Shown here: piece by piece, positions 4,042 to 54,485 of the stretch | Layout of the letters: each line of letters opens with the position of its first letter | How positions within the stretch are numbered: position 1 is the stretch's first letter | Assembly (NCBI GenBank): GCA_007136405.1 | Contig: SLHA01000007.1 | Coordinates: 1-64,000 of the forward strand | Direction: 5' to 3' | DNA from: Candidatus Latescibacterota bacterium | GTDB lineage: Bacteria > Latescibacterota > UBA2968 > UBA8231 | Length of the DNA stretch: 64,000 nucleotides | Program-made: the position numbers and the translations under genes | The notes under the pieces: generated by a model | What the model was told of the DNA's origin: nothing | What the model saw: the letters and a program-made list of their open reading frames with translations, nothing else | Database searches by the model: none

Positions 4042-5967
4042 TCATGCACTGCGGGCGATCGGCTGCCCGCTTCCGCTGGTCTCGTTACGATCAACGCCCG
4101 GGCGGCCGTCAACACCCGGCCGTCTATCAGCATCATACTGGTCGTGAGGGCCATACCGGTCGTCAGCGCCCGGCCTGCTGTCAGCACCCGGCCGGTCGTC
4201 AGCACGCGACCGGTCGTCAGCGCCATACTGGAGTTGGTGCAGCCGGTAATATACCCCCTGCTGTTGCAGCAGTGCCTCATGGGTACCGGATTCGCGCACC
4301 TTGCCCCGGTGCAGCACGAGGATGCGATCGGCGCTGCGTATGGTGGACAAACGATGCGCGATGACGATGGACGTGCGACCTCGCATCAGCCGCGCGACTG
4401 CCTCCTGGATCCACGTCTCGGTCTCCGTGTCCACGCTGGCCGTGGCTTCATCGAGCACCAATATCTGGGGATCACTGGCCAGCGCCCGGGCGAATGCCAG
4501 CAACTGTCGCTGGCCCGCGGACAGCGATGAACCGCGTTCACCGATGACGTGGAGGTAGCCGTCCGGCAGACGCCGGATAAAGCGATCCGCGTTGACGTCC
4601 ACGGCGGCTTGTTCGAGCTGGTGGCGGGAAACGTCGGGGCCGTGAAGCGCAATGTTACGCTCGATCGTTCCGGAAAACAGCAACACATCCTGATGCACCA
4701 CGCCGATACGGCGTCGCAGTTCGCGGGCGTCCCATTGACGGACGTCGATGCCGTCCACGAGTATGGACCCGCGCTGGATCGAATAGAAGCGGCAAAGCAG
4801 GGCGATGATGGTGCTCTTGCCCGAACCCGTGGCTCCGACGATCGCCAGGCTCTGACCCGGTTCGGCCCGGAACGACACATCCCGCAGCACCCACTCTTCA
4901 CCCTCGTAGGCGAACCACACATGGCGGAATTCGATCTCACCACGCAGGCTGCCGTCAGGCGCGATGCCGGACACCGGTTCCGCAGGGGTATCCAGGATCT
5001 CGAACAGTCTCTCCGATGACGCCATGGCCACCTGCAACGTGGCGTAGCGCTCGGCGATATCGCGGATAGGCATGAAGAACCGGGGCACGTACTGCAGCAT
5101 GGCTACCAGTACACCCCACTGCATGGTGTCCCGCAATACCTGTCCGGTTGCGTACCAGAGGACGAGAGCCAGCAGCAGCGAACCGCTCAATTCCATGAAC
5201 GGGAAATAGGCCGAATGGTACAGGGTACTGGTGAGCCGGGCCTGCAGGTAACTGTCGTTGCCCGCGTCGAACTGGCGCTGCGCCCGTTCCTCGGCGCCGA
5301 ACAGCTGCACGACCTCGATGCCGGAGATTGTCTCCTGGAGGGAAGCGGTGAAGGTGGCAAAACGGGTTCGCGCCCCCCGGAAGGCCTGGAAAGTGCGGCG
5401 CTGCAACCACACCGTGGCGATCGCCACCAAGGGCAGGACGGCGGCGGTCAGCAGTCCCAGCTTCACGTCCATGAACAGGATGAACCCCAGAATGGTGCAG
5501 ATGGTGAACAGATCCGAACACAGCGACACCATGCCGTCCGTGAACAATTCGTTGAGTGCATCCACGTCACTGGTGTTGCGCGCCATGAGCCGGCCCAGCG
5601 GCGTCCTGTCGAAGTACCGCACCGGGAGGCGCTGCAAATGCCGGAAAACCTGCAGCCGGACATCCCGCATAGCCCACTGCCCGACCATCTGCGTGGACCA
5701 ACTGCGTCCATATTGCAGTATGAACTGGCCGACCAGAAGGCCGATGTACAGCATGATCAGCCGCCCCAGCCCGGCAGCGTCACCCACGACGATGTACTCG
5801 TCCACTGCCACCTTGGTCAGGTATGGTCCTGCCTGGCTGACGATGGCAGCCATGATGATGAATCCGAAGGTCAGTACGACCCAGCGCGCATACGGACGCA
5901 GATACGCCAGTAACCGGCCCAGCAGCCGCGGATCCAGACTGCGCGTGGTGATCTCCGGCTCGTTCAC
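4042..5967 (-). CDS. ABC transporter, fused permease/ATP-binding subunit (exporter type, MsbA-like), with a C-terminal low-complexity repeat tail
   Basis: Six-TM N-terminal region. Walker A GATGSGKST, ABC signature LSAGQRQLLAFARAL, Walker B ILVLDEATASVD. The last ~60 aa are (A/G)D(D/S)RPG repeats. Confidence 0.85.
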   Translation of the reverse strand: MNEPEITTRSLDPRLLGRLLAYLRPYARWVVLTFGFIIMAAIVSQAGPYLTKVAVDEYIVVGDAAGLGRLIMLYIGLLVGQFILQYGRSWSTQMVGQWAMRDVRLQVFRHLQRLPVRYFDRTPLGRLMARNTSDVDALNELFTDGMVSLCSDLFTICTILGFILFMDVKLGLLTAAVLPLVAIATVWLQRRTFQAFRGARTRFATFTASLQETISGIEVVQLFGAEERAQRQFDAGNDSYLQARLTSTLYHSAYFPFMELSGSLLLALVLWYATGQVLRDTMQWGVLVAMLQYVPRFFMPIRDIAERYATLQVAMASSERLFEILDTPAEPVSGIAPDGSLRGEIEFRHVWFAYEGEEWVLRDVSFRAEPGQSLAIVGATGSGKSTIIALLCRFYSIQRGSILVDGIDVRQWDARELRRRIGVVHQDVLLFSGTIERNIALHGPDVSRHQLEQAAVDVNADRFIRRLPDGYLHVIGERGSSLSAGQRQLLAFARALASDPQILVLDEATASVDTETETWIQEAVARLMRGRTSIVIAHRLSTIRSADRILVLHRGKVRESGTHEALLQQQGVYYRLHQLQYGADDRSRADDRPGADSRPGADDRYGPHDQYDADRRPGVDGRPGVDRNETSGSGQPIARSA

Positions 5968-7745
5968 AGTTCAGTCAACTCCTGCGCCAGATCCTGGCGC
6001 CGGAACATGTCGGCATAGATCCCGTTCCGGGCCAGTAGCTCTTCATGGGTACCAAGCTCCGCGATGCGGCCGTCCTCGAGCACGGCGATGGCGTCTGCAT
6101 GGCGCACCGTGGACAGCCGGTGGGCGATGATGATGGTGGTTCGTTCGGCCATGATGGTGCGCAGGCGGCGCAGAATCTCTTCCTCGGTATGCGTGTCGAC
6201 GCTGGCCAAAGCGTCGTCCAGAATGAGAATCGCGGGACCGCGGATGAGCGCCCGGGCCAGGGCGGCGCGTTGTTTCTGGCCGCCCGACAGGGTGACACCG
6301 CGTTCGCCTATGAGGGTATCCAGACCGGCGGGAAAGGTGGCCAGTTCCTCCGTGAGCTGAGCGGTGTCCACAGCTCGTTCCACTTCATCCGGGTGGGCGC
6401 CGCCGCCATCCGCCTGGCCCAACCGGATGTTGGCACGTAGCGTATCCGAGAACAGAAAACTGTCCTGCGGCACATAACCGATGGACTGGCGCAGCTGGAC
6501 CAGCGGCAGGTCCTTGACGGGTCTGCCGTCCACCAGCACCGTGCCGGTGTCTGCCTCGATCAAACGGGGCACGAGTCGGGCCAGTGTCGATTTTCCCGCC
6601 CCCACCCGCCCGACCAGCGCCAGAGTACTGCCGGCGGGTACGTGCAGGGAGATATCCTGCAGCACGCGCTGCCCGTTGTAGGCGAAGCCGGCCTGACGGA
6701 ACTCGATCTCGCCCTGCAACCGGGGAACCGATGTGTCGCTGCCGGTATCCTGGGGCGGCTCGCGCAGAACCGCCTGTATGCGACGCAACGAGGCCAAGGC
6801 CCGCTGGTATTCATCCACCATGCGTCCGAGCAGCATCATGGGACGGCCCAGGCGAATGAGATACGCGTTGAACGCCACGAAGGCTCCCAGGGTCAACGCC
6901 CCCTGCATCACCCGCAGGCCGCCAAGCCAGAGAATGACGATCATCGAGATGCCGTTGAGCAGAAAGGTGAAGGGAAAGAACAGGCTGCGGATATTGACCA
7001 GGCGCCGGTTGCGAGCGACGAAATCGTCGTTGAGTTGCCCGAACTCGGCGAACTCCTGCTCTTCCCGGGCATACGCCTTGATCACGCGTATGCCGGACAG
7101 ACTCTCCTGTATTTTGGCGCTCATGGCGGCAAATTGCTCCTGCACCTGCCGAAAACCACGTCGCACCCTGCCCGAGACCCAGCGGGTAGTCAGAGCCATC
7201 AGCGGCATGGGAGCCAGCGCATACAAGGCCAGCTGCCAGTCGATGGTGCACATCAGTCCCAGACTGAGAACGAAGGCCAGTATACCGGTAAGCGTCATGC
7301 GAAAAGCATGGTGCATAAACCTCTGTATGGCTTCCACGTCATTGGTGGCTCGGGCCATGAGGTCTCCGACGCGCCGGCTCTGGAAATAGCTGCTGGGCAG
7401 CTGCAGCAGGTGGCGCACGTAGGCACGCCGTATATCCCTTTCCACATAACGCGAAACGCTGGTAAAGAACCAGCGCATACCCATATTGCCGCCCCATTGG
7501 ACCAGGGCCAGGACGCCGATGAAACCGGCTGTCAGAGCCACCTCCTGCTCCACCGAGCCGGTGATCAGATCCGCGGTGCAGTCCGCGTCCATGGCACAGC
7601 GAACCGTGTCGATGACGGTCTTCAGAATCAGCGGCATGACCGTGGTGATGGTCTGTCCGAGCAACAACAGGAGCAATCCGGCAGTCAGCTTGCCGCGATA
7701 GGGATGCACATATTCGGCAAAGGGTCGGTAAGGATTCAGGGACAT
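5964..7745 (-). CDS. ABC transporter, fused permease/ATP-binding subunit, partner of 4042-5967 (heterodimeric exporter)
   Basis: Walker A GRVGAGKST, signature LSGGQKQRAALARAL, Walker B ILILDDALASVD. Its stop overlaps the start of the downstream ABC gene by 4 nt. Confidence 0.85.
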   Translation of the reverse strand: MSLNPYRPFAEYVHPYRGKLTAGLLLLLLGQTITTVMPLILKTVIDTVRCAMDADCTADLITGSVEQEVALTAGFIGVLALVQWGGNMGMRWFFTSVSRYVERDIRRAYVRHLLQLPSSYFQSRRVGDLMARATNDVEAIQRFMHHAFRMTLTGILAFVLSLGLMCTIDWQLALYALAPMPLMALTTRWVSGRVRRGFRQVQEQFAAMSAKIQESLSGIRVIKAYAREEQEFAEFGQLNDDFVARNRRLVNIRSLFFPFTFLLNGISMIVILWLGGLRVMQGALTLGAFVAFNAYLIRLGRPMMLLGRMVDEYQRALASLRRIQAVLREPPQDTGSDTSVPRLQGEIEFRQAGFAYNGQRVLQDISLHVPAGSTLALVGRVGAGKSTLARLVPRLIEADTGTVLVDGRPVKDLPLVQLRQSIGYVPQDSFLFSDTLRANIRLGQADGGGAHPDEVERAVDTAQLTEELATFPAGLDTLIGERGVTLSGGQKQRAALARALIRGPAILILDDALASVDTHTEEEILRRLRTIMAERTTIIIAHRLSTVRHADAIAVLEDGRIAELGTHEELLARNGIYADMFRRQDLAQELTEL

Positions 7746-7946
7746 GGCGATATACAGGCAGGGCTCCGCCGCCTCGGCTCACCGCAGTAGGGAAGATCCA
7801 TTCGATGCACAAAATAGACTGACCGGTCAGTTCACGCAAGAGGCACGAGAGATAGCCCACGACCCATTCCCGCACCGCCCGGCACGCGCACAACTGCGGC
7901 CTGTCATCCAGGAGAGACGAAGGTCGGGAAGAGCCTGGAAGGGATC

Positions 7947-7988
7947 GGGGGCTGCCTGCCCGTTCGAAGTGCGTGCAGGCAGCCCCGG
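7947..7988. terminator. 12-bp GC hairpin between the ABC exporter and the encapsulin gene. Possible bidirectional terminator.
   Basis: GGGGCTGCCTGC-ccgttcgaagtgcgt-GCAGGCAGCCCC. No T-tract on either side. Confidence 0.3.
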
Positions 7989-8105
7989 GGTAGTCTGTGG
8001 ATCCTATGGGTTAATACGCAACCGGTCCGACAGGGCCGAGGGTGTTCCCGCGCCACCGACTGCGTCCGGACGCGAAGAGCCCTCAGGCCTGCGATCCACT
8101 ACCGT

Positions 8106-8909
8106 TCAGGATTTCCAGGCGAATACTGCCGCCGCTTCCGGGGTCAGTACCTGGAAGGTGAACGATTCGGTCAGGTACAACTGCACACTCCGGGTATCGT
8201 GCGCATGGTAGCCGATGGACAGGTCCTGGCCGCAGGTGAACACGTAGTCACCGCCGCGCCGGCTGAACAGGACCCCAGCCGTCAGCGCCGGGCTCCACTT
8301 GATGTCGGCCCCCACGAGTTCGCTCACACGCCGGACCAGGGGATAACCCTTGTCATCCCCGGCCATGACCATCTTGTAGGCTTCGGTACCCAGCATCAGT
8401 TGATACGGACCATTGATTCCTCTCTGCTGCAGCGTCAGGATGCCTTCTTCCAGAGCCGGGATGAACTTGCCGGCATCTTTGGTCAGCGGTACGGATTTAC
8501 CGGCCTCCTGGCAGATGCCCTTGATCTGCGCATCGGCGAAACCGTTGTACACGGTGGTTTCCTCGAACATGGCGATCTTGCGGGCGGCAACGCCGACAGC
8601 GTCCAGTTCAGGCGCCGGCGCACCGCGGTCGACATTGTCCAGATCCCAGATATCCAGTGAGAACGGGACGCGCAGCTCGATCAGAGGCTGCACCTTGCGC
8701 ATACCCCAGTGGACGCCATCCACCAGTTCCGTTCCACCCAGCTGCATCACGCCCAGGTTGACAGCTGCCTTTTCCCATCCGCCGGGTCCGGAAAAGTCGA
8801 CGAGGCCGCGAGCCGACAGATTGCCTTTCAGGACTCGTGTTGCTTCGGCATCGATCTCCTTCCAGGCCGCTGCCGTTATGGGTGCCATCGACCGTTTGAG
8901 AATATCCAT
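8106..8909 (-). CDS. Family-1 encapsulin nanocompartment shell protein (HK97 fold, linocin-M18-like)
   Basis: The translation MDILKRSMAPITAAAWKEIDAEA...LIELRVPFSLDIWDLDNVDRG...GPYQLMLGTEAYK...GQDLSIGY...TESFTFQVL aligns along its length with the T. maritima / Brevibacterium encapsulins. Start ATG is preceded by an AAGGAAAGGAAA RBS. The track ORF extends 33 codons further upstream and is spurious there. Confidence 0.9.
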   Translation of the reverse strand: MDILKRSMAPITAAAWKEIDAEATRVLKGNLSARGLVDFSGPGGWEKAAVNLGVMQLGGTELVDGVHWGMRKVQPLIELRVPFSLDIWDLDNVDRGAPAPELDAVGVAARKIAMFEETTVYNGFADAQIKGICQEAGKSVPLTKDAGKFIPALEEGILTLQQRGINGPYQLMLGTEAYKMVMAGDDKGYPLVRRVSELVGADIKWSPALTAGVLFSRRGGDYVFTCGQDLSIGYHAHDTRSVQLYLTESFTFQVLTPEAAAVFAWKS

Positions 8910-8967
8910 TTTGCCATTTCCTTTCCTTGGTTGTCCCATGCTGAGGGTCCACGACAATGCACCGTTT

Positions 8968-9312
8968 TCAACCGAGAGTGCCGATTCCCAGCCCGCCTTC
9001 CGCGACATCGTCCTCAGTTTCGCCTTCTGCCGCCTCGATCTCGGTGATCGGCAGGTCTTTGAACAAGTAAGTTTTCAACTCCGTATCGAATTCCGGCATG
9101 TTGCGGCGCAGGTATTCCATCAGCATGCTGGCATGCTCGATCTCTTCGTCGCGATTGTGTTCAAGCAGGGCTTTGAGCTGTGCATCCTGGGTGACCTCAG
9201 CACGTTGGTTGTAGTAATCCACGGCTTGCAGTTCTTCCTGCAGGCTGATGATTGCCCGGTGGATGTCCTGGATTGTACCGGACAGCCCGGTTTCCTGGTA
9301 TCCGTCACTCAT
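8968..9312 (-). CDS. Encapsulated ferritin-like protein (EncFtn-type cargo) with C-terminal encapsulin targeting peptide
   Basis: EncFtn signature ELQAVDYYNQRAEVTQDAQLKALLEHNRDEEIEHASMLMEYLRR. C-terminal GGLGIGTLG matches the family-1 cargo-loading peptide consensus (GSLGIGSLK-like). AAGGAG RBS before ATG (MSDGYQ). It lies 58 bp upstream of the shell gene. Confidence 0.85.
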   Translation of the reverse strand: MSDGYQETGLSGTIQDIHRAIISLQEELQAVDYYNQRAEVTQDAQLKALLEHNRDEEIEHASMLMEYLRRNMPEFDTELKTYLFKDLPITEIEAAEGETEDDVAEGGLGIGTLG

Positions 9313-9426
9313 GATGGGACTCCTTTCGTGTTGTCGGAACGCGACCCGGGGTAGCCAGCCAGATTTGGGAACCAACCCGGAACCTGGAGGGTGGAATAGA
9401 CCGGCCAACCACGCGGTCTTCGGCAG

Positions 9427-9822
9427 CTAGCCCTCGTTCTCAGCTATACATAAGCAAACACCAGTCCGCAGACAAGGGCTGTCAACAGCCATTGACCAGC
9501 CTTTCGACAGATCATGGCGCCGGCGGTAGACGTTCGCCACAAACGCTGTATACAAACCGCTATCCACACCGGCCGCGGCAGCGATGGCCGCGTTTTCGTC
9601 CAGCCAGTGGGGGGCCAGATCCAGGGCAATCCGCACAAAAGTCTCCGCCTGCGCCTGCAGGTGCCTCCGGGTCAATCCGGCCTCCCGCGCCGGTGCCAGG
9701 TACTGGAGCTCCAGATCCTGATGGATGGCTTCCCGGTTGATGCACCCCCAGGCAGCGCCTATCTCCGCCGGTGTGCCGGTCAGCGGCGTGCAGGCGACCG
9801 ATGCAGGGGATTGGTCCGACAC
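9427..9822 (-). CDS. Hypothetical protein (131 aa), first gene of the putative encapsulin operon
   Basis: GTG start 6 nt after a perfect AGGAGG RBS. The ORF is non-repetitive with moderately GC3-biased codons. No recognisable motif. The N-terminal 37 codons of the track ORF have poor GC3 and were discarded. Confidence 0.4.
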   Translation of the reverse strand: MSDQSPASVACTPLTGTPAEIGAAWGCINREAIHQDLELQYLAPAREAGLTRRHLQAQAETFVRIALDLAPHWLDENAAIAAAAGVDSGLYTAFVANVYRRRHDLSKGWSMAVDSPCLRTGVCLCIAENEG

Positions 9823-9975
9823 GGTAGACCTCCTGGTATCCTTGACGGCCCATTGCGGGCACAAGAGATTCACACCGCGGTAGAGCCAGTGCGCCGCCCG
9901 GTCACCTCGACTCCGGCCGGTCGCATCAGGCATTCACCGGCGCCGAATCGGATTACCAGCCAAGAGAGTGAACCC

Positions 9976-11199
9976 ATGCGCAATCATCCATTGGACGGCA
10001 TCCCCCGTCCGGATCTCCGCATCACCGATGTCGATGTCCTGCCGCTGTCCTACGCAGATCCCGCCGGCGACCTGTGGCATACCGGCAAGTACCAGGTCTG
10101 GAAGACGGACGGCGCCATCACGCGCATCTACACGGATCAGGGCATCGTCGGTATCGGCGAAGGCTCACCGTATGAGGGACCGGACTACATAAAAGAGTAT
10201 ACCGAGGAAACCATCAAGCCGCTGCTGCTCGGTATGAATCCGTTCGACGTGGAACTGCTGACCAACCGGGGCAATACCAGCCGGGCGGGCCGGGCTCCCT
10301 GGGCCGGGGTGGACACGGCATGCTGGGACATCATCGGCAAGGCAACGGATCGTCCGGTATACGAGTTGCTGGCCATCGACCATGAGCCTTCCCGCCGCAT
10401 CAAAATCTACGCCAGCGCCGGAGTCCAGCACGAATGGTACGCCGACGGCGAGCAGTTCCTCATCGAGGAAGCGCGGCGCTACCAGGAGCAGGGATACGAT
10501 GCCTTCAAATTCCGGTGCGGCACGGACTGGCAGTTCAGCGGCATGACCTATGACCGTTACTTCGGCATCCTGCGGCGCTTGCGGGAAGCCGTGGGGCCGG
10601 ATTTTCGCCTGATGCACGAAGGTATGGGAACCATGGGAGGACCGCTGGAGACTCTGGTCACCGAGGTGGCTCCCGTCCTGGAGGAACTGGGCTTCTACTG
10701 GTTCGAGGAAGCTCCTGGCAACACTGCGCTGGAGCATATCGATCTCTTCCTGCGGCTGCGCGACGCCATGCCCTCGGTGATGGTCTCCGGCGGCGAGCGG
10801 TTCCGCGAACGCTTCGAGGCGCAGGAGTGGCTGGACCGCGGCGCCCTGGACATCATCCAGACGGACTGTAACGTGACCGGCCTGACGGAAAACTGGCACA
10901 TCGCCCGCATGGCCCACCTGCGTGGCGTGCGCAGCATCCCGCACAACTGGCACGGCGGCGGCACCACCATGGCCAACGCCCATTTCGTCGCCGGTATTCC
11001 CAACGGCGAATACTGCGAGTTGAACCAGACGCACAATCCGCTCAAGGAGGAAATTTTCAAGGAACCGCTCACCGTGGTGGACGGCATGATGGAGCTGCCC
11101 GACAGACCCGGGTACGGTCTGGAGCTGATCGAGGATGTAGCGCAGAAGTTCCCGTACGTACCGGGATCGTATCAGAAACCGAATCCCAGATTGACCTGA
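9976..11199 (+). CDS. Enolase-superfamily enzyme (mandelate racemase / muconate lactonizing enzyme family), likely a sugar-acid dehydratase
   Basis: N-terminal capping domain (ITDVDVLPL...IYTDQGIVGIGEG) and TIM-barrel region with metal-ligand Asp/Glu spacing typical of MR/MLE members. The upstream 154 codons of the track ORF are Arg-rich and judged spurious. Confidence 0.75.
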   Translation: MRNHPLDGIPRPDLRITDVDVLPLSYADPAGDLWHTGKYQVWKTDGAITRIYTDQGIVGIGEGSPYEGPDYIKEYTEETIKPLLLGMNPFDVELLTNRGNTSRAGRAPWAGVDTACWDIIGKATDRPVYELLAIDHEPSRRIKIYASAGVQHEWYADGEQFLIEEARRYQEQGYDAFKFRCGTDWQFSGMTYDRYFGILRRLREAVGPDFRLMHEGMGTMGGPLETLVTEVAPVLEELGFYWFEEAPGNTALEHIDLFLRLRDAMPSVMVSGGERFRERFEAQEWLDRGALDIIQTDCNVTGLTENWHIARMAHLRGVRSIPHNWHGGGTTMANAHFVAGIPNGEYCELNQTHNPLKEEIFKEPLTVVDGMMELPDRPGYGLELIEDVAQKFPYVPGSYQKPNPRLT

Positions 11200-13779: not shown

Positions 13780-13985
13780 GAGGCTTGCACCGCGGACATT
13801 TAGAGACTATGCTTGTGTAAGAAAGACATTATAACTGGAGATGAGGAGGCTAACCGCGCGAAAGCGCGGGGCGCAAAGGAGCGGGTCCTCGTCAGACAAC
13901 CGGGGCATCACAGACCAACGCTCGGTGGCTCTGCACAAGACAGCCGCACTGCTGAACCATCCGGCAGTGCGGTTTTTTCCAACCC
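13780..13985 (+). ncRNA. Candidate cis-regulatory leader RNA or small RNA of unknown class
   Basis: Non-coding 200-nt stretch starting in an AT-rich patch. It contains GGAGAUGAGGAGG...GCGCAAAGGAGCGGG...CUCUGCACAAGACAG, ends in an intrinsic terminator and abuts the AAGGAGG RBS of the next gene. Loose resemblance to the conserved glycine-riboswitch segments GGAGAG / GCGCCGAAGGAGCAA / CUCUCAGGCAAAAGGACAG, not secure by eye. Confidence 0.3.
13943..13978 (+). terminator. Canonical intrinsic terminator (8-bp GC stem plus T6 tract) ending a ~200-nt structured leader or sRNA upstream of the TPR lipoprotein gene
   Basis: CCGCACTG-ctgaaccatccgg-CAGTGCGG-TTTTTT. A T-tract terminator is unusual in this GC-rich window. 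Confidence 0.6.
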
Positions 13986-14013: not shown

Positions 14014-14478
14014 ATGATCCGACATGCCTTAACAGCTGCACTGATCCTGTTGCTGTGTGCCTGCGGTGATCCCTATCAGCAGGGACAAACGGCTTTCGAG
14101 GAAGGACGGTGGGAAGAGGCCATCGCCCGTCTGGAGCGGGTCCGGGTTCTGGATGCCAACTATCAGGAAGCAAGGCGTTTGATCGCGCGCGCCAACTTCC
14201 AGCTGGGAAAAGAAGCCTACGAGCGTCAGGAATGGAGCGATGCCCTGCAGTATCTGCAACGGGTCAGTCGCTCGGATGTTGATACTCAGGCAGCCCGTGA
14301 TCTGATCAGCAGCGCTCATTTCGAGCAGGCACAAGAGGCCTTGGAACACGGTGATCAGGAGGAGGCTGTGCGCCTGCTCAGCAGGGTCACCCGGGACTGG
14401 AAACGCTATGCCGAGGCCGAAAGCCTGCTCGTCAAGCTCAGGGATGAGGCTGCGCCGATCGCGGAGGATGCGGACTGA
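14014..14478 (+). CDS. TPR-like repeat lipoprotein
   Basis: AAGGAGG RBS. Lipobox MIRHALTAALILLLCACG. The sequence reads as tetratricopeptide-like helical repeats (EEGRWEEAIARLERV, YQEARRLIARANFQLG, WSDALQYLQRV). Confidence 0.6.
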   Translation: MIRHALTAALILLLCACGDPYQQGQTAFEEGRWEEAIARLERVRVLDANYQEARRLIARANFQLGKEAYERQEWSDALQYLQRVSRSDVDTQAARDLISSAHFEQAQEALEHGDQEEAVRLLSRVTRDWKRYAEAESLLVKLRDEAAPIAEDAD

Positions 14479-24367: not shown

Positions 24368-24520
24368 TCTGCCCCGAGGCGCGGCTGGCCGCTTATACCG
24401 CCGTTTCCGCGTGTGATTCAGCATGAATTCGCTCCCGAGGCGCGGCCGGGCCGCTTGCTGGCAGTTTCTGTGTGAGGCCGAGTGTGGATTCGCTCTCGAG
24501 GCGCGGCCGGACGGCCTGCC
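24368..24520. repeat. Three ~61-bp direct repeats in the divergent promoter region between enolase paralog 2 and the RraA-like gene
   Basis: Core (c/t)cCGAGGCGCGGC(t/c)GG(c/g)C repeated at 24373, 24434 and 24495. Flanking GTGTG(g)ATTC...CGCTC also repeated. Confidence 0.65.
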
Positions 24521-32331: not shown

Positions 32332-33030
32332 TCAGTCGTTTCGCCCTCCCAGCAGTCCGGCACGAATCAGGAAGTAGAGCAGTTGGGCCACCGAGGCAGC
32401 AGCTGCCGCCACGTACGTCATAGCAGCGGCGTTGAGCACGGCCGCCACACCCTGGTATTCTTCGCCGCGAACGATGCCATGTTCGTACAGCAGCTGCTTG
32501 GCCCGCGACGAAGCATTGAATTCCACGGGAAGCGTCACGATCTGGAACGCCACCAGGAAAGAGAACAAGACAATTCCGAGGTGGATCAGGCCCATGGCAC
32601 CCATCATGAAACCGATGAAGATCAGCCAGAACGCCAGGTTGCTGCCCACTGACGCAGGCTTGGCCAGGGCCTGCCATGCAGTCATCACGGCATAGCCGGT
32701 ATCGTGTTGGATGGCGTGGCCCGTCTCATGGGCGGCAATGCCGGCCGCCGCAACGGACTTGCCGTTGTACACGCCGGAGGATAGACGCAGTTTGCGCTCA
32801 TTAGGCGAGTAGTGATCCGACAGCCAGCCGCGCGTTTCCTCCACATCCACATCCGTTACCCCATTGGCCCGGAGAATCTGCCTGGCGATCTGAGCGCCGG
32901 TCATGCCGGAACGCAGCCCATATTTCGAATAGGTCTGGTACCGGGACTTGACCAGCCACTGGGCATACAGGGAAAAGATGAGCACCGGTGCCATGATGAT
33001 CAGGTAAAGGGGATCAAAAAGCGCCAACAT
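32332..33030 (-). CDS. Putative neutral zinc metallopeptidase (Zn_peptidase_2 family membrane protein)
   Basis: HETGHAIQH Zn-binding motif. TM helices at both ends. Confidence 0.7.
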   Translation of the reverse strand: MLALFDPLYLIIMAPVLIFSLYAQWLVKSRYQTYSKYGLRSGMTGAQIARQILRANGVTDVDVEETRGWLSDHYSPNERKLRLSSGVYNGKSVAAAGIAAHETGHAIQHDTGYAVMTAWQALAKPASVGSNLAFWLIFIGFMMGAMGLIHLGIVLFSFLVAFQIVTLPVEFNASSRAKQLLYEHGIVRGEEYQGVAAVLNAAAMTYVAAAAASVAQLLYFLIRAGLLGGRND

Positions 33031-40364: not shown

Positions 40365-42628
40365 TGTCGCAGGATTCGGCGCCGTACGGCGGCCGGCATC
40401 GGAGCCTCCGCAGCGCGGCTATGCGTGTCAACAGCACGTTGCGCCATGGTGACTGGCTGCGCCCTGCGCTCGTATGGATACTGATCATCCCGTTCCTGAT
40501 GCTGCCCTGCGCCGACGCGGCGGAGACCGGTGCGGATCGCCAGGTATCGCCGCGCGAAGCGGACGGTCTGCGGGTCGAGGCGATCCGATTCGTGTACCCT
40601 GGTGAGCAGGCATTGAGCAACAGAGACCTGCGCAGCGCTATGCGCATCCAGGAAGGAGGACGCTTCCGCCACGGTTTTTTCCGGGGAGACCTGGCCACCC
40701 TGGTGGCGCTGTACCAGAGCCGCGGCTACCGCGAGGCCCAGATCACGCGGCGACAGCTCATAGTGGACGAAAACGACCGTCTGCGCATAACCATCGAACT
40801 GGACAGCGGTCCCCGCTGGCGCGTGCGCCAGGTGAGTGTCGTCGGCACCGAGACCTTTTCCGTACCCGAGTTGCTGGCCCAGGTTCCCGTGGCAACGGGA
40901 GACGACCTGAACTACGGTCGGGTGCTGGAGGGCGAGCGCAATTTGCAGATCTACCTCAACCGGCGCGGACATGCACGGGCAACCATCTCCAACGAATGGA
41001 TCGACTACCCGGAATCCCATATCGCCGACGTGATCTACCATGTCAACGCCGGCCCGCGGATGTACATCGGCGAGATCACCATTCAGGACGAGGACGATCT
41101 GCAGACGCGCAGCAGCCTGGTCTGGAACGCGCTGACGTTCAAAGAGGGTGACCTGTACGATCCGGGCGAACTGTCGCGCAGCCGCCAGGCGTTGACCGAG
41201 ACCGAACTGTTCCGCTCCGTTTTCTTCTCCACCCCTGAACGGGCCATTGAAGATAGTCTCCAACCGGTCCATATCCGGTTGCAGGAACGCAAGTTCATCG
41301 TGCTGGACGCCAACGCGTACGTCAACTACGTTCCCGGCGATATCAATCCGCGCGTGGCCGGCTCCATACAGCACATCAACTGGCTGGGACGCGGTATGAA
41401 GCTGGGCCTGGATGCCAGCTGGGGTGAACCGCTTCAGGGTGGAACCGTGTTCATGATGGAGCGCGACCTGTTGCGCTCCGGCGCGGACCTGGTCCTGTCG
41501 GTAGGTGTAACTGACCGTTGGGGCGGCACACAGGTATTCGCCGACCCGGATGAAGAGCGGCAATTCGACCTCCTCACCACCAACGACTCCGTCCTGGAGG
41601 GACTGCTGCTGTTTGGCGGCGAGGACGTCGCCCGGCAGTACATACAGACCGTCGTCTACGACTACACGGCCATCACCCGGCGGAAGGAAATCTCGGGAAC
41701 CTTGTCGCGCCGCTGGTTCGAGAGCTTCAACACCCAGGCCCGGGTCGACTATACGCGGGCCCGAAGTGCGCCGGACCCGACGCGGAACATCCGCTATACG
41801 CCCAGTGACATTCACACAGGCCCCACGGACCCGGGAGACGACGATCCCTGGGATGACGATCCGTGGGATGACCCCTGGGATGATGACCCCTGGAACGATG
41901 ATCCGTGGAACGATGATCCGTGGGGCAATGGCGACAACGGCAACGCGGCCAATGGCACCGCGCCGGGCTACCTGGACTACAGCGATGGCCATATCCCCAT
42001 CGACGGTACTTGGAAGTCCATCCTCACGGACCGGTCTCGATCCATCAACCTGTCCACGGAAATCGTCCGGGACACCCGCGACAGCCAGATCGCTCCCAGC
42101 CGCGGATCGTTCGTGCGCCTGAGCGGATTGTACGCTATCCAGCTGGATGCCCGCACCACGGATGTGGTGGACGGTACCGCCGAGGTCCGCCAGTATCAGC
42201 GTCTTTCCAGGCGCTTCACACTGGCCATGGCCGGACAGTACACCCGCACCGCCGCCGTTGACAAAGATCGCGCCTTGCCGCAGGTCTACTGGAAGCGGTT
42301 TGGGGGCGACGGCAGCGTGCGCGGAGTGGAGCGGGACGGTATCGTCGCCATCGGCGGCGGCCGCACAGGGGTCAACCTGCGCGCCGAATTGCGTTACCAG
42401 TCCGGAGCCTTCGGCATGGTGGGTTTCCTGGACCGGGGCAATGTATGGCGACGATCCAGCGACTACGAGTGGCACGACCTGATACGCCCCAGCGGTATGG
42501 TCGACGGCTACGGCATCGGACTGCGCTATGTGGTGGGTTTCCCGTTCCGGCTGGACATCGCATTTTCAGACGGCTTCAACACCGAGGACAGATTCCGGAT
42601 CTACTTCAGCATCGGCCAGGCATTCTGA
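40364..42628 (+). CDS. tamA: Omp85-family outer-membrane protein TamA/BamA-like (POTRA domains plus 16-strand barrel), with a DPW acidic repeat insertion
   Basis: POTRA-like domains. C-terminal beta-signal …[13 protein letters not shown] overlaps the tamB stop (ATGA...TGA context). Insertion [34 protein letters not shown]. Confidence 0.75.
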
Positions 42629-54395: not shown

Positions 54396-54485
54396 TGTTC
54401 GCCATGGCTTCGCGCCGGTGGCTGCCGTACTGGTTCATCGCCATGGCATCGCACCGGTGGTGTCCATATCGCTTCATCGCACCCT
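54396..54485. repeat. 2.3 copies of a 39-bp tandem repeat, each containing a GCCATGGC palindrome, in the 5' UTR of the second GH4 gene
   Basis: ttgttcgccatggcttcgcgccggtggctgccgtactgg / ttcatcgccatggcatcgcaccggtggtgtccatatcgc / ttcatcgcaccc. Ends 8 nt before the RBS. Confidence 0.65.

Follow-up and report, generated by a model that had tools for sequence, protein, structure and literature searches.

A probable two-gene family-1 encapsulin operon with an EncFtn cargo in an uncultured bacterium, preceded by a putative remnant of a C45-like hydrolase gene

The locus described here lies in a window of 64 kb, meaning the whole stretch of DNA that was analyzed. As judged from sequence, it is very probably a classical two-gene family-1 encapsulin operon, in which the gene of an encapsulated ferritin-like protein (EncFtn) precedes the shell gene, with the 131-aa open reading frame upstream (ORF131) as a gene remnant and the ABC exporter downstream as an unrelated neighbor. 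EncFtn-loaded family-1 encapsulins are well characterized in structure and biochemistry, and the EncFtn-encapsulin pair is an already known kind of system. The locus is one more example of it, from an uncultured lineage. The main value of the analysis is correct annotation: ORF131 should be listed as the fragment of a truncated C45-like gene rather than as a new encapsulin component, and the ABC exporter should not be counted in an "iron nanocompartment module".

Results

Gene organization of the locus

All genes that had been named in a sequence-only reading of this DNA were found, and all lie on the minus strand. The features are as follows.

8106-8909, minus strand: family-1 encapsulin shell gene, 267 aa, starting with MDILKRSMAPI
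8968-9312, minus strand: EncFtn cargo gene, 114 aa, ending in AEGGLGIGTLG
8971-8997, minus strand: C-terminal targeting (cargo-loading) peptide of EncFtn, GGLGIGTLG, assigned by consensus fit
9427-9822, minus strand: ORF131, 131 aa, most likely the remnant of a C45-like (Ntn-hydrolase) gene, assigned by family HMM alignment
9520-9822, minus strand: gene-derived part of ORF131, codons 1-101, homologous to C45-like relatives
9430-9519, minus strand: tail of ORF131, codons 102-131, without homology
5964-7745, minus strand: ABC half-transporter gene 1, with ABC_membrane and ABC_tran domains
4042-5967, minus strand: ABC half-transporter gene 2, with ABC_membrane and ABC_tran domains
7948-7986, minus strand: strong stem-loop, located about 120 nt past the stop codon of the shell gene

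The EncFtn gene is located 58 nt upstream of the shell gene, and ORF131 is located 114 nt upstream of the EncFtn gene on the same strand. The shell gene and the ABC gene pair are separated by 360 nt. Longer mechanical ORFs for the shell (300 aa) and for EncFtn (146 aa) were disfavored, since the alignments to homologues and to solved structures begin at the shorter starts.

Rfam was searched with positions 7500-10200 at permissive E-values and with the whole window, and no RNA element was found in or around the operon. The sigma-70 promoter scan of positions 7600-10200 returned no site. In the terminator scan, terminator-like sites were no commoner than in shuffled sequence. The source-given names of the three proteins were looked up among the members of a clustered protein collection, and none was present.

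The shell protein belongs to the encapsulin family

The shell protein was compared with curated profiles. Pfam PF04454 (Linocin_M18) was matched over model positions 1-253 of 253 with an E-value of 1.7e-78 and 263.8 bits (cut-off 24.3). The NCBIfam equivalog NF041155 (encap_f1) was matched over positions 1-260 of 261 with 266.8 bits (cut-off 100). These matches place the product of 8106-8909 in the encapsulin family, as had been proposed from the sequence-only reading.

In the comparison with solved structures, residues 1-261 aligned near-gapless to the shell of Haliangium ochraceum (7odw, 1.2e-63), and the shells of T. maritima, Klebsiella, and Mycobacterium were matched at 1e-53 to 1e-57. 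The near-gapless full-length alignment to 7odw and to the T. maritima shell 3dkt (8.6e-56) points to an HK97 fold, with its A-domain, P-domain, E-loop, and N-terminal helix. The particle is most likely a T=1 shell of 60 subunits with a diameter of about 24 nm. This is suggested by the protein length of 267 aa and by the best matches of the protein, the T=1 shells of H. ochraceum, T. maritima, and mycobacteria, and also by the E-value of only about 1e-5 for the Q. thermotolerans-type (T=4-type) shell 6nj8.

The cargo protein and its targeting peptide

The 114-aa protein was matched by PF22277 (EncFtn-like) at 1e-35 with 121.8 bits (cut-off 27) and by TIGR04535 with 130.5 bits (cut-off 125). Shell and cargo thus both score above the curated cut-offs of the encapsulin and EncFtn families, at levels not attributable to chance, and both can be aligned along their entire length with solved members of these families. 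Among solved relatives, the E-values were 2.5e-28 for 3k6c, 1e-22 to 1e-25 for R. rubrum EncFtn, and 2.5e-23 for H. ochraceum EncFtn. The ferroxidase center of R. rubrum EncFtn consists of Glu32, Tyr39, Glu62, and His65, of which Glu62 and His65 form part of the ExxH motif (PMC11202242). In the alignment to the solved relatives, a position in the protein studied here equals the R. rubrum position minus 5. All four ferroxidase-center residues are kept, as E27, Y34, E57, and H60. The profile scores and these residues identify the ferritin-like gene as an EncFtn gene that keeps the metal-site residues.

The targeting-peptide consensus of ferritin-like proteins (FLPs) was published as L(F)-X1-V(I)-X2X3-L(I), where X1 is G, T, or S and X2X3 is GS or GT (PMC11202242). 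The EncFtn of the window ends in LGIGTL after an acidic linker, and this motif fits the published consensus. In the motif scan, GGLGIGTLG was the only genuine C-terminal motif of the targeting type in the 64-kb window. A second C-terminal motif resembling a cargo-loading peptide, at 32801-33013 on the minus strand, was rejected because its ORF is nested in another frame of a real 232-aa gene.

Conservation of the gene pair in related loci

In each of the 38 related genomic loci, the gene immediately preceding the shell gene encodes EncFtn. A targeting-type motif was found at or near the EncFtn C-terminus in each of the 38 loci, mostly as SLGIGSL; the variants included GLGIGKM (L008), SLAVGDL (L013), and SLRVGSL (L045). 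The motif is therefore kept in the orthologs, and the assignment of GGLGIGTLG as a cargo-loading peptide stands. Taken together, the profiles, the motif, and the 38 loci support the original proposal of a family-1 encapsulin with an EncFtn cargo that would be loaded via its C-terminal targeting peptide.

A Lentisphaerae MAG has the nearest encapsulin relative, whose shell is 68% identical. The DNA similarity to this MAG is limited to the EncFtn and shell genes, and the flanks differ. No evidence contradicting the encapsulin-EncFtn reading was encountered.

ORF131 is most likely a truncated C45-like gene

The perfect AGGAGG-N6-GTG start that had been described for the 131-aa ORF was confirmed at 9427-9822 on the minus strand, with tctacc as the 6-nt spacer. 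A longer mechanical ORF of 168 aa was disfavored, since the public assemblies (P0001) call the 131-aa GTG start. In P0002, the closest homologue, the start is placed equivalently and follows immediately on the stop codon of the gene before it.

The word-index homologue search with ORF131 returned only two matches, a copy from the same species and the fragment P0002 with 62% identity. This search was insufficient to place ORF131, and an exhaustive profile search was needed, by which 102 relatives were found. The full-length relatives are about 400-470 aa long and match at their N-termini only. They match NCBIfam C45_proenzyme (NF040521) at 1e-11 to 1e-23, and also Pfam AAT. Since their scores reach at most 81 bits, just below the curated C45 cut-off of 85, the full-length relatives are classified from these profiles as a divergent C45-like clade. 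ORF131 itself was matched at positions 1-70 of NF040521 with an E-value of 5e-4.

A C45-like family HMM was then built from 40 full-length relatives. Residues 9-101 of ORF131 align to positions 7-98 of this 429-position HMM with 93.4 bits, and the alignment then ends; ORF131 spans the N-terminal 23% of the enzyme family. Homology is lost only a few residues ahead of the position of the catalytic Cys. ORF131 reads SKGWSMAV where the relatives have (P)ECTSYAV, and the nucleophile Cys is missing. The relatives go on with ECTSYA...LFHKTRDN, whereas ORF131 goes on with GWSMAV... and stops at residue 131. ORF131 has neither the HKTRDN motif nor the roughly 300 residues of the catalytic body. Its last 30 codons lack codon-position GC structure and do not have a coding-type composition. 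The GC3 of this tail is 0.516 compared with 0.772 for codons 1-101, and it is the lowest among 2531 31-codon windows from neighboring genes.

These comparisons suggest that ORF131 is most likely the N-terminal remnant of a C45-like autoproteolytic Ntn-hydrolase gene. The truncation was determined by comparison with the family and not from a direct before-and-after pair of loci. Counting against a remnant, the ribosome-binding site, the start codon, and 101 well-conserved codons of ORF131 are intact, and its identity to P0002 is 62%. ORF131 may therefore still be expressed, or may have a residual or new function. Six contigs of the same species all carry ORF131 unchanged, but since their overall identity exceeds 99.9%, this says nothing on selection.

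The rest of the C45-like enzyme was searched for elsewhere in the 64-kb window and was not found; all matches outside 9380-9900 had E-values of 0.005 or higher. The solved-structure search with P0002 gave chance matches only (E > 0.7), and the Pfam search with ORF131 and P0002 gave no match. The ancestral locus was searched for in metagenome contigs by use of the divergently transcribed enolase-superfamily neighbor, and no intact locus was found. The neighbor was present in 44 metagenome loci at 26-85% identity, and a C45-like, ABC, EncFtn, or shell gene was nearby in 0 of the 44.

The ABC exporter genes and the stem-loop

The two ABC half-transporter genes overlap by 4 nt. Only generic MsbA-like or multidrug-like models were matched, all below their cut-offs. 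The stem-loop at 7948-7986, between the shell gene and this pair, has 15-nt arms with 93% complementarity and a folding energy of -29.5 kcal/mol (z = -3.99), and none of 200 shuffled sequences folded as well. Its sequence is unique in the window. The strong folding is local to the hairpin: taken as a whole, the 360-nt spacer is no more stable than its shuffled versions (z = -0.62). The stem-loop has no U-tract, and the terminator scan did not report it. As a putative terminator it may define where the transcript ends, or it may act as a stabilizer, and in this way it may separate the operon from the ABC genes.

Alternative explanations of the locus

The shell gene could be viewed as the major capsid protein gene of an HK97-type prophage instead of an encapsulin gene, since encapsulins and HK97 capsids share a common fold and misannotation between them is known in both directions (PMC8346489). 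This is almost certainly not the case here: the shell protein scores far over the curated family-1 equivalog cut-off, its best solved relatives are all encapsulins, and a cargo gene with a targeting peptide is located directly upstream. Terminase, portal, and protease genes were searched for within about 10 kb around the shell gene on the same-species contigs, and none was called; the called genes are metabolic or transport genes. The downstream side of the encapsulin operon was also considered, because the ABC exporter could form one functional module with it that handles, for instance, iron or oxidative stress. The exporter is on the same strand immediately downstream of the shell gene, and this layout is kept in all six same-species contigs, but contigs with more than 99.9% identity provide no independent information. 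A comparable exporter within 6 kb was found in 0 of the 38 related loci, with L033 alone showing a weak ATPase-domain match on the opposite strand. Together with the 360-nt gap, its hairpin of -29.5 kcal/mol, and the generic sub-cut-off matches of the exporter, this makes a shared module very unlikely. The heterodimeric exporter reported directly downstream is real as a gene pair, but its link to the encapsulin is not supported.

On the upstream side, the sequence-only reading had raised ORF131 as a possible third component. Whether as second cargo, as assembly chaperone, or as regulator, it would be co-expressed with EncFtn and the shell; its strand, its distance of 114 nt, and its perfect start agree with this, and there is no convincing terminator between ORF131 and the EncFtn gene, only a weak 6-pair candidate at 9469-9454. 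However, no targeting-peptide motif occurs anywhere in ORF131, at the C-terminus as already noted or elsewhere, and the window-wide scan found that of EncFtn alone. The suggested conservation check across the related encapsulin loci, performed with tblastn and the family HMM, found ORF131 or C45-like sequence in 0 of 38. The 823-bp contig of P0002, the sole close homologue, has no EncFtn or shell sequence. With a product that corresponds to 23% of an enzyme from its N-terminus and ends in a non-coding-like tail, a third component is extremely unlikely. It is unlikely, too, that ORF131 is a functional stand-alone small protein, namely a domesticated C45-like N-terminal region unrelated to the encapsulin. 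Codons 1-101 keep a host-like codon composition (GC3 0.772), the identity is 62% to P0002 and about 40-50% to the full-length relatives, and the translation signals are intact. In every full-length relative, however, this region is succeeded by the Cys nucleophile and by about 300 aa of catalytic body. The short members among the 102 family matches, judged by their sequence ends alone, look heterogeneous; many end within conserved motifs or in unrelated, often Arg/Pro-rich tails, like contig-end or frameshifted fragments. The composition of the ORF131 tail favors read-through into non-coding DNA.

Comparison with known systems

The encapsulin and EncFtn of Haliangium ochraceum (PDB 7odw, 7oe2, 5n5f) provide the closest solved shell, with a single one-residue gap over residues 1-261. 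The two-gene architecture, the C-terminal localization sequence, and a shell of about 266 aa are shared. The H. ochraceum cargo is a strong match. Identity to this system is no more than moderate. In the EncFtn of the window, a shorter linker joins the helical domain to the peptide, and the protein has 114 aa in total compared with 131 aa in the 7oe2 chain. The host here also differs: it is an uncultured bacterium, and the encapsulin nearest to its own is that of the Lentisphaerae MAG. Compared with R. rubrum EncFtn (Rru_A0973, PDB 5da5), the four conserved ferroxidase residues are shared, but the equivalent of Glu34 is Gln29, and the window protein is known from sequence alone. The alignment to the Thermotoga maritima shell (PDB 3dkt) covers residues 1-261 of the window shell, and the targeting peptide fits a consensus that was derived from the R. 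rubrum and T. maritima systems.

Nitrosomonas europaea NE0167 (PDB 3k6c), a short FLP, is the best match to the helical EncFtn domain, over residues 2-90. NE0167 has no recognizable C-terminal targeting peptide (PMC11202242), whereas the EncFtn of the window has one and adjoins a shell gene. With respect to the C45 acyltransferases/hydrolases (NF040521; PF03417 AAT), residues 9-101 of ORF131 correspond to the segment preceding the nucleophile Cys, but this Cys is missing, and neither the HKTRDN motif nor the catalytic body follows.

Proposed function and origin

The EncFtn protein would assemble into annular decamers (D5), whose dimer interfaces would carry the di-iron ferroxidase center formed by E27, E57, and H60 with Y34. 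Its flexible C-terminal tail, ending in LGIGTL, is predicted to dock inside the shell of the 267-aa protein, presumably of the HK97 fold, during self-assembly. Fe2+ would pass through the shell pores and be oxidized by EncFtn, and the ferric mineral would be held within the shell, so that the compartment would store iron and protect against oxidative stress driven by it. ORF131 would have kept the ribosome-binding site, the start codon, and about the first 100 codons of a C45-like gene, with the nucleophile Cys and the catalytic body lost.

A more specific origin can be imagined, in which a horizontally acquired EncFtn-encapsulin cassette replaced the 3' three-quarters of the C45-like gene, the operon uses the promoter and leader of that gene, and the ORF131 product was perhaps co-opted as an accessory. 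This scenario is considered very unlikely. Direct and inverted repeats were searched for around the cassette as insertion scars, and only short pairs at chance level were found. Three observations are compatible with this scenario. The GC3 of the two cassette genes is 0.68 and 0.74, compared with 0.77-0.80 in the neighbors. In the comparison with the nearest relative, DNA similarity extends over these two genes only. Finally, about 190 nt separate the point at which ORF131 loses its homology from the EncFtn ribosome-binding site downstream of it.

Encapsulin shell and EncFtn cargo

The locus is an ordinary family-1 EncFtn encapsulin operon, a system of a kind already known, and it was correctly recognised by the sequence-only reading. 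The genes concerned are listed below; every feature described in that reading is present on the minus strand where it had been placed.

4042-5967, minus strand: ABC half-transporter gene 2, with transmembrane domain and ATPase domain
5964-7745, minus strand: ABC half-transporter gene 1, with transmembrane domain and ATPase domain
8106-8909, minus strand: encapsulin shell ORF, 267 aa
8968-9312, minus strand: EncFtn ORF, 114 aa, ending in AEGGLGIGTLG
9427-9822, minus strand: ORF131, 131 aa, with AGGAGG, six bases and a GTG start

The identity of 8106-8909 as the encapsulin shell was borne out by strong matches to the family models. Pfam Linocin_M18 spans the 267-aa product end to end (1.7e-78), and the NCBIfam family-1 encapsulin equivalog scored 266.8 bits (cut-off 100). 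Among solved structures, shell residues 1-261 align with the Haliangium ochraceum shell 7odw at 1.2e-63 with one single-residue gap. The Thermotoga, Klebsiella and Mycobacterium shells matched at 1e-53 to 1e-57, and the larger Quasibacillus-type shell 6nj8 at only about 1e-5. Because of its length and nearest relatives, the shell is predicted to be T=1 with 60 subunits. Gene calls in six same-species contigs include no phage morphogenesis genes in the roughly 10 kb around the shell.

The 114-aa product scored above the cut-offs for both PF22277 and TIGR04535, and its matches to solved EncFtn proteins range from 1e-22 to 1e-28. The ferroxidase-centre residues of R. rubrum EncFtn are Glu32, Tyr39, Glu62 and His65 (PMC11202242). 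In the alignment with this protein the query position equals the chain position minus 5; therefore E27, Y34, E57 and H60 are the counterparts, and all four are conserved. The targeting-peptide consensus for FLP is L(F)-X1-V(I)-X2X3-L(I), where X1 is G, T or S and X2X3 is GS or GT (PMC11202242). The C-terminal L-G-I-G-T-L matches this consensus.

Conservation and possible origin of the EncFtn-shell pair

One genome per species was scanned, which yielded 38 related loci encoding shell relatives with 41-68% identity. In each, the shell gene is immediately preceded by an EncFtn gene, and a motif of the same type is found at or near the EncFtn C-terminus (38/38). The majority have SLGIGSL; among the variants are GLGIGKM (closest relative), SLAVGDL (related locus L013) and SLRVGSL (related locus L045). 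With the motif present in all 38 loci and the shell product matching its family, neither finding that would have refuted the sequence-only reading was made.

The closest relative is a Lentisphaerae MAG with a shell identity of 68%. Its nucleotide similarity to the window runs from the EncFtn ribosome-binding site to the shell stop codon, and the genes flanking the pair are wholly different. Third-position GC is 0.68 in EncFtn and 0.74 in the shell gene, versus 0.77-0.80 in neighbouring genes. The slightly lower value of the 8106-9312 cassette is compatible with horizontal acquisition without proving it. No insertion scars were found around the two-gene cassette. When an ancestral locus was sought in metagenomes with the divergent enolase-superfamily neighbour, none of the 44 loci obtained shared the neighbours. 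In some metagenome loci, namely L051 (477-4699) and L066 (4067-12246), relatives of the window's MR_MLE (enolase-superfamily) gene form tandem arrays of 3-4 paralogues; the window has a single copy.

Proposed function

According to the general model of encapsulin/EncFtn iron storage (PMC8346489 and PMC11202242), EncFtn decamers would be held by their C-terminal peptides on the interior surface of an HK97-fold shell that self-assembles. Fe2+ would pass the shell pores and be oxidised at the EncFtn di-iron centres. The ferric mineral would stay in the lumen, providing iron storage and less iron-driven oxidative damage. For this locus, family membership at the sequence level, the catalytic and targeting motifs and the conserved pairing of the two genes are established; assembly of the compartment, its T number, its chemistry and the transcript boundaries are predictions.

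ORF131 as a probable gene remnant

ORF131 had been raised as a possible third component. Its AGGAGG-N6-GTG start is present as described, directly upstream on the minus strand. Among 5.8 billion proteins, a word-index search returned only the same-species copy and P0002, a 181-aa protein with 62% identity located on an 823-bp contig. ORF131 and P0002 also match the NCBIfam C45_proenzyme model weakly, over its first 70-113 of 313 positions. When 1.84 billion representatives were searched exhaustively with a profile, 102 relatives emerged. Those of full length (about 400-470 aa) are matched at their N-termini only; all 8 tested match C45_proenzyme (1e-11 to 1e-23), and 4 of the 8 match Pfam AAT.

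In the multiple alignment, VYR is followed by ECTSYA and then by LFHKTRDN, both in the relatives and in P0002. By analogy with the C45 family, ECTSYA would be the self-cleavage site with the nucleophile Cys of the relatives. ORF131 reads SKGWSMAV at this site and ends at residue 131. When an HMM of 40 full-length relatives is aligned to it, residues 9-101 correspond to positions 7-98 of the 429 in the model, and the alignment goes no further. Codons 1-101 have a normal coding composition (GC by codon position 0.70, 0.53 and 0.77); codons 102-131 are flat (0.55, 0.52 and 0.52). With a third-position GC of 0.516, the tail has the lowest value when set among 2531 windows of 31 codons taken from seven neighbouring genes. 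No match to any of the 102 relatives was found by tblastn in the window outside 9380-9900.

The simplest reading makes ORF131 the remnant of a C45-like hydrolase gene. That gene would have kept its original ribosome-binding site, its start codon and its initial ~100 codons, and the last ~30 codons of the ORF would be read-through. A third encapsulin component is not supported: ORF131 is an N-terminal C45-like fragment with no targeting-peptide motif, and C45-like sequence was found by tblastn and HMM in none of the 38 related loci.

P0002 (L007, 1-823) is the sole close homologue of ORF131 found beyond the near-identical same-species contigs. It tracks the C45-like family as far as residue ~145, diverges, and stops at 181 just before an AT-rich stretch. 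This abnormal end may mean that truncation occurred independently a second time, or that the contig is chimeric.

ABC exporter and other elements

The two ABC genes share a 4-nt overlap and clearly form a heterodimeric exporter pair, as had been noted; a 360-nt spacer separates them from the shell gene upstream. Only generic models of the MsbA or multidrug type match them, under curated cut-offs. The link to the encapsulin is not supported, and none of the 38 related loci has a comparable exporter within 6 kb; the sole weak ATPase-domain match, in related locus L033, is on the opposite strand. The adjacency occurs only in the same-species contigs, which carry no independent weight because they are >99.9% identical to the window. 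The spacer between the shell and ABC genes contains a stem-loop at 7948-7986 (15-bp arms, -29.5 kcal/mol, z = -3.99), which occurs once in the window and has no U-tract. Its role may be to terminate transcription or to stabilise RNA.

At its 3' end (4042-4230, minus strand), the second ABC gene specifies about 55 additional C-terminal residues, rich in D, R, P and G (ADDRSRADDRPGADSRPGADDRYGPHDQYDADRRPGVDGRPGVD...); imperfect tandem repeats of 18 nt and 72 nt at 4091-4228 encode this extension. Further short arrays of imperfect tandem repeats, with periods between 15 and 61 nt, were seen at 659-820, 24373-24510, 41830-41924 and 54399-54480. A c-di-GMP-I riboswitch aptamer (RF01051) was detected at 13838-13956 on the plus strand, scoring 40.6 bits (gathering score 35) over the full model (1-87). 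It lies 58 nt upstream of a plus-strand gene (14014-14478) for a TPR-containing, lipoprotein-like product of 154 aa, with weak TPR matches and LLLCACG in its N-terminus.
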